From the NCBI RefSeq assembly GCF_003334255.1, contig NZ_QOWU01000102.1: a stretch of 6,185 nucleotides of DNA, one strand, 5' to 3'. Within the stretch, counting starts at the first letter, position 1. Each line of letters begins with the position of its first letter. Below, in pieces: positions 23 through 1,680 of this stretch. The stretch comes from Escherichia coli (GTDB lineage Bacteria; Pseudomonadota; Gammaproteobacteria; Enterobacterales; Enterobacteriaceae). Position numbers and translations under genes: made by a program. The notes under the pieces are model-generated. The model was not told where the DNA came from. It worked only from the letters and a program-made list of their open reading frames with translations, and searched no databases.

Positions 23-1680
23 CCGGGACCGAACAACGTCTGTTCATCATGACTAAACTGAGCAATCCCTGGTGGCGCCTCAATCATCTCTACAAAATAC
101 AGAACGAAAAAGGTGAACTGGTCACCTTCAGAATGCGACCGGCGCAACGTCAGTTGTTTCGTAACATGCATAATAAAAACATTATCCTGAAAGCGCGCCA
201 GCTGGGATTTTCCACAGCCATTGATATTTATCTTCTCGACCAGGCATTATTCATTCCGCATCTCAAATGCGGGATCGTCGCTCAGGATAAACAGGCTGCC
301 AGTGAAATTTTCCGCACAAAAATTGCTGTACCGTTTGATCATCTCCCTGACTGGCTGAGAGCCTCATTCACCATCGTTGAACGTCGTAGCGGTGCCAGCG
401 GTGGCTATATCCTGTTTGGTCACGGCTCGAGTATTCAGGTGGCAACCTCATTTCGCTCAGGTACGGTGCAGCGCCTGCATATCTCAGAACACGGCAAAAT
501 TTGCGCGAAATATCCGGCTAAGGCGAAAGAGCTGCGAACCGGTACGCTTAATGCCGTCTCTGATGAATGCATTATTTTTGATGAATCCACTGCTGAAGGT
601 GTGGGTGGCGATTTTTACGAGATGAGTAACCGGGCACAGGAAATCACTGCATCAGGGCTGGCGCTGACGCCACAGGATTATAAATTCCATTTTTACGCCT
701 GGTGGCAGGATCTCAAATACAGCGCCAGAGTGCCGGAAAGCGGACTTAAGCTGTCACGGGAAAAAACAGCGTATTTTTCTGCGGTTGAAAAAGCAATGAA
801 CATCACGCTTACCGATGAGCAGAAACACTGGTACATCTGCAAGGAAACTGAACAGCGTGAGGAAATGAAGCAGGAATTTCCCTCAACGCCACAGGAGGCG
901 TTTCTGACGTCAGGACGACGGGTGTTCAGTGCGGAAAGCACGCTGCAGGCAGAGTCATTCTGTTCGCCACCGCTGATTGTTTATGACATTGAACCGGTTA
1001 CAGGAACGAAGACCAAGGCGCAGTCTCTGCGTGACGGGAATAAAGCCGAACAGCACCGGACGCTGATGAATTATCTGCTGGTCTGGGAGCTGCCGGATCC
1101 GGATGAAGAGTATGTATGCGGAGCAGATACCGCTGAGGGGCTGGAGCACGGAGACCGCTCATCGCTGGATATCATCAGATGCAGTAATGGTGAGCAGGTG
1201 GCTCACTGGTTTGGTCATCTCGATGCGGAGCTTTTCGCTCATCTCATTGCGCAGGTCTGCCGTATGTACAACAACGCGTTTGTGGGGCCGGAGCGTAACA
1301 ATCACGGACATGCCGTTATCCTGAAACTCAGGGAACTCTATCCGACGCGTTATATCTACAACGAACAGCACCTTGACCAGGCATATGACGACGATACGCC
1401 CCGTCTTGGCTGGCTGACAACCCGCCAGAGTAAACCGGTCCTGACAGAGGGAATGAAAACGCTGCTGAATAACGGCCTGTCGGGGATCCGCTGGTCGGGC
1501 ACATTATCAGAAATGAACACCTACGTTTATGACGCGAAAGGCTCCATGAATGCACAGGAAGGCTGTTTTGATGATCAGCTTATGAGCTACATGATTGCCC
1601 AGGAGATGCGCGCCAGAATGCCGGTGAGGGTAAAACAGAAAACGGATAAACGCAGAACCACACACTGGATGGCTCACTGA
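19..1680 (+). CDS. Terminase large subunit (ATPase plus nuclease), 553 aa
   Basis: Long ORF from the track. N-terminal half has a P-loop-like segment ILKARQLGFST (nt 184-216) and a Walker B with catalytic Glu, IIFDEST (nt 571-591). C-terminal half has RNase-H-like acidic motifs: YVCGADTAEG (nt 1111-1140), HGDRSSLD, and CFDDQLMSYM near the C-terminus. It sits directly upstream of a portal-sized gene. Start codon is uncertain: frame 1 is also open to the window edge, so the true start could lie upstream. Confidence 0.88.
   Translation: MTGTEQRLFIMTKLSNPWWRLNHLYKIQNEKGELVTFRMRPAQRQLFRNMHNKNIILKARQLGFSTAIDIYLLDQALFIPHLKCGIVAQDKQAASEIFRTKIAVPFDHLPDWLRASFTIVERRSGASGGYILFGHGSSIQVATSFRSGTVQRLHISEHGKICAKYPAKAKELRTGTLNAVSDECIIFDESTAEGVGGDFYEMSNRAQEITASGLALTPQDYKFHFYAWWQDLKYSARVPESGLKLSREKTAYFSAVEKAMNITLTDEQKHWYICKETEQREEMKQEFPSTPQEAFLTSGRRVFSAESTLQAESFCSPPLIVYDIEPVTGTKTKAQSLRDGNKAEQHRTLMNYLLVWELPDPDEEYVCGADTAEGLEHGDRSSLDIIRCSNGEQVAHWFGHLDAELFAHLIAQVCRMYNNAFVGPERNNHGHAVILKLRELYPTRYIYNEQHLDQAYDDDTPRLGWLTTRQSKPVLTEGMKTLLNNGLSGIRWSGTLSEMNTYVYDAKGSMNAQEGCFDDQLMSYMIAQEMRARMPVRVKQKTDKRRTTHWMAH

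Follow-up and report, generated by a model that had tools for sequence, protein, structure and literature searches.

The window considered here is a 6,185-nt stretch of Escherichia coli DNA (contig NZ_QOWU01000102.1), and its first gene, encoding a protein of 553 amino acids (aa), is assigned here as the gene for the large terminase subunit (TerL) of a short-tailed, Shiga toxin (Stx)-converting lambdoid phage. The analysis chiefly concerns the ATPase centre of this protein, in which neither the classical Walker A lysine nor the Walker B aspartate occupies its usual position. The gene itself is already known: many deposited Stx-phage genomes carry it under the annotation terminase large subunit.

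Identity and context of the terminase gene

Over its full length the window matches Escherichia phage PhiR12_3 at 99.5% identity. Identity is 97% with Shigella phage POCJ13 (Sepvirinae) and about 93% with some 190 Stx1/Stx2-converting phages; across the whole set of 190+ Stx/Sepvirinae phage genomes, identity to the window runs from 99.5 to 92.9%. The late operon of POCJ13 has the order TerS (small terminase subunit), TerL, portal, a 335-aa head gene and the major head protein. Both this annotation and the open reading frames (ORFs) of the window place TerL downstream of TerS and upstream of the portal gene in a late operon. In genetic work on Sp5, ORF59, the counterpart of TerL, was taken as the large terminase and the terminase genes were assumed to be essential, and deletion of ORF60 (portal) left DNA packaging defective (PMC5155283).

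The protein matches PHROG 2 (terminase large subunit) at 6.6e-52. Among the sequences of the Protein Data Bank (PDB), phmmer found only T4 gp17 and RB49 gp17, with both halves of the protein matched (4.7e-08). AlphaFold2, given 125 diverse relatives, yielded a confident model (pLDDT 92.3, pTM 0.81) that shows the two-domain fold of large terminases, an N-terminal ATPase of the additional strand, catalytic glutamate (ASCE) class with a lid and a C-terminal RNase-H-like nuclease. A Foldseek search with this model returned T4 gp17 first (6e-23), followed by the terminases of T7, G20c, PhiV-1, Sf6, D6E and P74-26. The PHROG match, the first rank of T4 gp17 among the fold matches and the position between TerS and portal bear out the proposal, made from the DNA letters by an earlier reader (the original prediction), that the gene encodes TerL. 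Nucleotides 19-1680 are accordingly assigned to the large terminase of a Sepvirinae phage. A superfamily 2 (SF2)/DEAD-box helicase, with its motifs I-II-III, was considered and ruled out by the lack of a second RecA-like domain, the presence of a C-terminal nuclease and the packaging context.

The TerL frame is open from nt 1 of the window. The commonest TerL in the database (P0001, 568 aa, from a cluster of 1,753 sequences) begins at an ATG that lies 27 nt before the window and 45 nt upstream of ATG19; this upstream ATG is preceded by GGGGAGA and gives a 20-nt overlap with the end of TerS. The equivalent of ATG19 is the RefSeq start in POCJ13 and has no obvious Shine-Dalgarno sequence. At the other end of the gene, the stop codon of TerL and the start codon of portal share bases in TGATG (window 1678-1682), an arrangement that suggests translational coupling of the two genes.

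Walker A motif

Residue correspondences were taken from alignments with T4 gp17 made by phmmer (4.7e-08), hmmsearch with a family profile (4.4e-12), hhalign (97.7%) and blastp (1e-08), together with a five-sequence MAFFT alignment of the query, F116, KF-1, a jumbo Erwinia phage and a T4-type gp17, on whose sequence the T4 motif numbering was checked. Conservation was counted in 125 representatives that are 28-50% identical to the query TerL; 28 of them form a subgroup with a T4-like nuclease. The query search returned 1,085 representative clusters at E<=1e-30 and 9,421 at E<=0.001, the tail of the latter taking in distant TerLs of other types.

The original prediction had named ILKARQLGFST (aa 56-66, nt 184-216) as the only P-loop-like segment of the ATPase domain. 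The 553-residue protein has no GK[ST] at all, so that this is its only such segment and the classical Walker A lysine is missing. The four pairwise and profile methods, with MAFFT in agreement, align L57-K58-A-R60-Q61-L-G63-F64-S65-T66 to T4 N-L160-S-R162-Q-L-G-K166-T167-T168. This pairs R60 with R162, S65 with T167 and F64 with K166, the classical lysine position, and the description of KARQLGFST as a non-canonical Walker A motif is sustained. K58, R60 and G63 are each invariant in the sample, while Q61 is kept in 121 and T66 in 122 of the 125 relatives. Position 65 is serine or threonine throughout. At position 64, at least 119 relatives have F, I, M, V, C or G, and lysine is absent among these six commonest residues. 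In the AlphaFold2 model the loop connects strand 53-58 to helix 64-78. Because four methods agree on the alignment to the T4 Walker A motif and K58, R60 and G63 are invariant, the loop is not a chance match.

The loop combines an arginine at position 3 with a serine at the position of the Mg ligand. An arginine at loop position 3 or 4 is nearly universal in TerLs (PMC6379665), and R60 is identified by the alignment as this conserved P-loop arginine. The segment K58-ARQL-G63-F-S65 also follows the pattern K-x4-G-x-[ST], with a residue other than lysine at the classical position. Manual comparison, to which hhalign adds a faint signal, showed the same K-x4-G-x-S pattern in lambda gpA (76-KSARVGYS-83), again with an aromatic residue in place of the classical lysine and an arginine in the loop, although the arginine is at position 4 in gpA and at position 3 here. 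The deviant Walker A of gpA belongs to the class of Mitchell & Rao 2004, cited in PMC6379665. By its motif pattern, the KARQLGFST loop is assigned to this known and published lysine-first class of the lambda gpA type, and K58, at loop position 1, is presumed to stand in for the classical lysine as in gpA. A working role for K58 is also supported by HK97 TerL, in which an additional P-loop lysine, K57, is essential and was modelled as touching the gamma-phosphate (PMC9410871). The two lysines are not placed alike, as K57 follows the P-loop arginine and precedes the classical position by 3 residues, whereas K58 precedes it by 6. HK97 TerL moreover keeps the classical K60 and a canonical D153-E154, and the query TerL has neither.

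The likeness to gpA is limited to the motif pattern. The match between the family profile and lambda gpA in hhalign was not significant (probability 0.3%, E 0.21), and homology to gpA (Terminase_GpA family) is not supported at the profile level. Lambda, a cos phage, differs in its nuclease/maturation domain, and its gpA keeps a canonical Walker B motif, VAGYD-E179, whereas the query TerL lacks the aspartate.

Walker B motif and C-motif

IIFDEST (aa 185-191) is present exactly at nt 571-591, where it had been reported, and the original prediction took it as a canonical Walker B motif with its catalytic glutamate. D188 and E189 would then be the Walker B pair, and LHISE would have no special role. 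IIFDE is indeed the only hydrophobic run followed by DE in TerL, and E189 is invariant in the family. The alignments, however, place the motifs differently. T4 M251-IYID255-E256 falls on R152-L-H-I-S156-E157 by hmmsearch, hhalign, blastp and MAFFT alike, and IIFD188-E189-S190-T191-AEG falls on T4 K-IIIT285-T286-T287-PNG, the ATPase-coupling C-motif, by hmmsearch, hhalign and MAFFT. Strands 53-58, 152-156 and 185-190 of the AlphaFold2 model come in the order expected for the strands of the P-loop, Walker B and motif III. Spacing agrees as well, with about 93 aa from Walker A to LHISE and about 33 aa from LHISE to EST, against about 90 and 30 in T4.

The conservation of the two segments also argues against a Walker B motif at IIFDEST. 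Position 188 is isoleucine in 85 relatives and valine in 28 (113 of 125 together), and is I, V or L in 118; only 2 have aspartate. Relatives as close as 71-75% identity carry IIFIEST or IVFIEST at this site. Because D188 is rare and close relatives have isoleucine, the apparently canonical DE is best explained as a recent I-to-D substitution beside an invariant glutamate. A hydrophobic residue is needed beside the catalytic glutamate of T4 and is found in about 93% of TerLs (PMC5737356); E189 is instead followed by serine. E157 is invariant and is followed in the relatives by F, Y, L, H or M, as expected of a catalytic glutamate, a role that is here predicted from sequence. The hydrophobic strand before it does not end in the aspartate of a classical Walker B motif, as S156 lies on T4 D255; position 156 is serine in 121 relatives, threonine in 4 and aspartate in none. 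Some 30 residues further on, E189-S190-T191 supplies the S/T-rich C-motif, with E189 and T191 in all 125 relatives and S190 in 122.

A Walker B motif at IIFDEST is on this evidence improbable. The alignments instead assign Walker B and the catalytic glutamate to LHIS156-E157, and IIFDEST to the strand of the C-motif. The family as a whole has serine or threonine at the position of the Walker B aspartate and an invariant glutamate, E189, in the C-motif. No report of a serine variant of Walker B in terminases was found in the searchable literature, and no terminase paper was among the full-text matches listed for the motifs KARQLG, LHISE/LHVSE or ESTAEG, in a literature that does not cover key sequence papers of the Rao laboratory. 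The combination of a serine-for-aspartate Walker B and a glutamate-containing C-motif may be undescribed so far.

Other ATPase residues and inteins

Two further residues of the ATPase centre have counterparts in T4. Q43 aligns to Q143 of T4 'DYQRD' and is a candidate for the adenine-contacting glutamine of the Q-motif on the strength of the T4 and HK97 literature, where HK97 Q33 provides a precedent for the adenine contact (PMC9410871). R146 aligns to the arginine of T4 'AVRGNSF' and is likely the trans-acting arginine finger; the position is arginine in 121 relatives and histidine in 4. R146 lies 10 residues before position 156, and R245-D255 of T4 and R139-D149 of P74-26 are spaced alike.

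Several family members of 787-1,234 aa (P0173, P0242, P0222, P0223, P0193 and P0153) contain one or two inteins. Pfam Intein_splicing confirmed those of P0222 and P0173, and a weak LAGLIDADG match was seen in P0222 only. The insertion sites are GF^TT in Walker A (F64/T65), LH[IV]^SE, EYPT^PEEAF and the third nuclease motif HNWA^[CS]HGADA; in P0222, P0223 and P0193 an intein lies exactly between I155 and S156. Inteins favour conserved catalytic motifs. Their placement at GF^TT and LH[IV]^SE is supportive of the motif assignment, though not decisive.

Nuclease domain

Residues 357-527 align to T4 388-550 by blastp and phmmer, with about 29% identity in the nuclease domain. The original prediction had named the acidic residues of GAD (aa 368-370, nt 1120-1128), HGDRSSLD (aa 377-384, nt 1147-1170) and CFDDQ (aa 516-520, nt 1564-1578). 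Three of these, D370, D379 and D519, fall on T4 catalytic positions, but E425 had been missed, and neither D384 (6 of 125 relatives) nor D518 (12 of the 28 in the subgroup) is conserved. In T4 and RB49, D401/E458/D542 form the Mg-binding triad (PMC3012670), and the corresponding acidic triad here is D370/E425/D519 (Table 1). The C-terminal domain is assigned by these correspondences as a T4-type RNase-H-like nuclease with this triad and the auxiliary D379.

The other 97 of the 125 relatives have a different nuclease subtype, marked by WDxG..D / PHD / SHxADA. Their median identity to the query is 43% in the ATPase domain and about 11% in the nuclease domain. The two domains thus differ in their history, and the pairing of one ATPase family with two nuclease subtypes points to mosaicism at the level of domains or to very unequal divergence.

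Table 1. Positions of genes and of predicted functional residues of TerL in the window
Feature	Position (nt)	Strand	Basis and remarks
TerL ORF	19..1680	+	553 aa from ATG19; translation 19-1677
Portal protein gene	1680..3824	+	PHROG 156, 1.4e-252; portal in POCJ13 annotation
Sp5 ORF61 homologue, 335 aa	3982-4989		By position
Major capsid gene, 5' 1.17 kb	5012-6185		PHROG 334, 3.4e-166; ATG 5012; runs off window end
Candidate adenine-binding Gln (Q-motif), Q43	145..147	+	On T4 Q143; 121/125 relatives
Deviant lysine-first Walker A/P-loop, K58-A-R60-Q61-L-G63-F64-S65-T66	190..216	+	T4 alignment and conservation
Candidate trans-acting arginine finger, R146	454..456	+	On Arg of T4 'AVRGNSF'
Predicted Walker B strand and catalytic Glu, L153-H-I-S156-E157	475..489	+	T4 alignment; AlphaFold2 strand 152-156
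IIFDEST, predicted strand beta-4 ending in C-motif/motif III (sensor-I region)	571..591	+	T4 alignment; AlphaFold2 strand 185-190
Predicted C-motif, E189-S190-T191	583-591	+	D188 (nt 580-582) lineage-specific
Predicted catalytic Asp D370 (GAD)	1126..1128	+	On T4 D401; 28/28 of subgroup
Predicted auxiliary Asp D379 (HGD)	1153..1155	+	On T4 D409; 28/28 of subgroup, 111/125 overall
Predicted catalytic Glu E425 (GPERN)	1291..1293	+	On T4 E458 (YIELN); 28/28 of subgroup; end of AlphaFold2 strand 421-425
Predicted catalytic Asp D519, second D of CFDDQ	1573..1575	+	On T4 D542 (YHDD); 28/28 of subgroup

Arrangement of the ATPase centre

T4 gp17 (Terminase_6-type; PDB 3cpe, 2o0h, 3c6a) is the best match in sequence and in fold, for both domains. 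The Q-motif, the Walker A R-Q-x-G, the arginine finger, the Walker B strand with its glutamate and the C-motif occur in like order and with like spacing, and the nuclease has the same D-E-D RNase-H-like triad. The query TerL differs from gp17 in having phenylalanine for K166, with a lysine (K58) 6 residues upstream, S156 for D255, and the invariant E189 for T285, the first residue of the C-motif. It also lacks an N-terminal extension of about 100 aa. The TerLs of F116 (Pseudomonas), BcepMigl (Burkholderia), PEp14 (Erwinia) and KF-1 (Edwardsiella) belong to the same uncharacterised family; they are 36-45% identical in the ATPase domain and share LK[AS]RQxG[FI][ST]T, LH[IV]SE and [IV]ESTAEG, though most TerLs of this F116 family (97 of the 125 sampled) differ from the query in nuclease subtype.

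The absence of both the classical lysine and the Walker B aspartate from their usual positions would be expected if the ATPase centre were degenerate and hydrolytically inactive, with another protein supplying the energy for packaging. We consider this highly improbable, and it was rejected. The remaining motif residues are invariant (125 relatives sampled; 1,085 clusters at E<=1e-30), and the phages are viable, 933W both packaging and transducing DNA. Lambda gpA is functional with a lysine-first loop, and the TerS-TerL-portal module contains no gene for a second packaging ATPase.

An active centre in which the charged pair has moved accounts for the same substitutions and would extend the LHISE assignment. 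T4 K166/D255 would be replaced by the neutral F64/S156, with K58 at the end of beta-1 and E189 at the end of beta-4 forming a new pair. Ligation of the Mg2+-bound water would pass from the Walker B aspartate to E189, and E157 would remain the catalytic base. In the five-way alignment the states occur together: the query, F116 and KF-1 have K..F / S-E / E-S-T, and the jumbo Erwinia phage and T4 have [TS]..K / D-E / [ST][ST]T. In the wider sample K58, E157 and E189 are invariant, position 156 is always serine or threonine, and no lysine is listed at position 64. The ASCE 51432 sheet of TerLs puts beta-4 between the strands of the P-loop and Walker B (PMC9410871), and the residues of T4 motif III face the catalytic centre (PMC5737356, Fig. 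2 legend), which makes relocation of the pair reasonable. An upstream P-loop lysine can also contact the gamma-phosphate in HK97 TerL (PMC9410871). However, the joint occurrence amounts to one difference at the level of the family, which may reflect a single evolutionary event, and not to repeated covariation. Lambda gpA is lysine-first yet keeps D-E179, which shows that one change need not bring the others, and S156 could itself hydrogen-bond the Mg-bound water. Relocation of the pair is therefore put forward tentatively, as possible rather than probable. If true, it would represent a naturally rewired P-loop active site in the packaging motor of a very large, unmodelled family.

The explanation as a whole, a Stx-phage TerL with its Walker B motif at LHISE, its C-motif at IIFDEST and a T4-type nuclease, is very likely correct. 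Several points nevertheless weigh against it. The terminase models of Pfam and NCBIfam fail to detect the protein: TerL matched no terminase family of Pfam-A at E<=10, Terminase_6N and Terminase_6C included, and NCBIfam had no match to TerL, to the portal protein or to the ORF61-like protein. The models score few of the relatives either, as only 3 of 125 match Terminase_6N and 9 of 125 match Terminase_6C at E<=0.001. A profile search against terminase families, which the original prediction had proposed as a check, was in this way informative with PHROGs and silent with Pfam and NCBIfam. The start codon has two candidates, ATG19 and the ATG 45 nt upstream. The Walker B aspartate that the family lacks is called strictly conserved in the T4 literature, where not even D-to-E is tolerated (PMC3012670, PMC5737356); the active site is therefore no simple copy of that of T4. 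Finally, the identity of the gene, its fold, the residue correspondences and their conservation are shown by direct comparison, and the chemical roles of the residues are predicted by homology to T4, P74-26 and lambda.

Probable packaging mechanism and implications

The TerL ATPase, probably as a pentamer on the portal, would hydrolyse ATP and pump DNA through the portal, and the RNase-H-like domain would cut the concatemeric DNA. Within the ATPase centre, K58 would bind phosphate from loop position 1 and not from beside the serine/threonine, Q43 would contact adenine, and R146 would act in trans as the finger; the strand ending in S156 with the catalytic E157, and the C-motif E189-S190-T191, would complete the centre.

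F116, whose TerL is of the same family, is a classic generalized transducer. Generalized transduction is documented for 933W, which appears to have terminally redundant DNA (PMC3752737). Because of the apparent terminal redundancy and the transduction of 933W and the transduction by F116, packaging is probably by the headful (pac) mode.

Spotting motifs by eye misplaces Walker B in this TerL family, since the lineage-specific I188D change mimics 'hhhDE'. This has a practical consequence for the design of catalytically dead Stx-phage terminases, for example to block spread or transduction: the residues to target would be K58, E157, D370, E425 and D519, and not D188. The consistent absence of an aspartate considered strict in T4, together with an invariant glutamate in the C-motif, offers an incremental clue to the flexibility of the active site in packaging motors. 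There is also an annotation gap, as the TerL, portal and head gene of this medically important group of phages are detected by no model in NCBIfam, and the same holds for Pfam in the case of TerL.

Remaining features of the window

No Rfam family matched the window. A promoter scan found promoter-like sites at chance level, and a repeat scan found only short pairs that resemble chance matches. A reverse-strand ORF of 199 aa (5087-5686) lies inside the major capsid gene and was dismissed as probably spurious.

The portal gene is followed by a gap of 157 nt (3825-3981) that contains hairpins at about 3841-3866 and 3868-3917. The first is strong and resembles an intrinsic terminator, with a 10-bp stem that includes 5 G-C pairs (AACCCCGT..ACGGGGTT then TTTTTTGTTT); the second is long and forms around GATAAGCG..CGCTTAT. 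The RNA fold of the gap has a z-score of -2.6, and none of 200 shuffled sequences folds as well. POCJ13 matches the gap at 99% identity, which leaves no covariation by which to judge the fold. A terminator at this point of the late operon could be read through only with Q-type antitermination.

The acidic 335-aa protein encoded beyond the gap belongs to PHROG 479, which has no assigned function. Its homologue in Sp5, ORF61, is essential for head formation and was undetected on particles (PMC5155283), which invites the question of a scaffold-like role. The ATG of the major capsid gene at 5012 is preceded by GAAGGAG.

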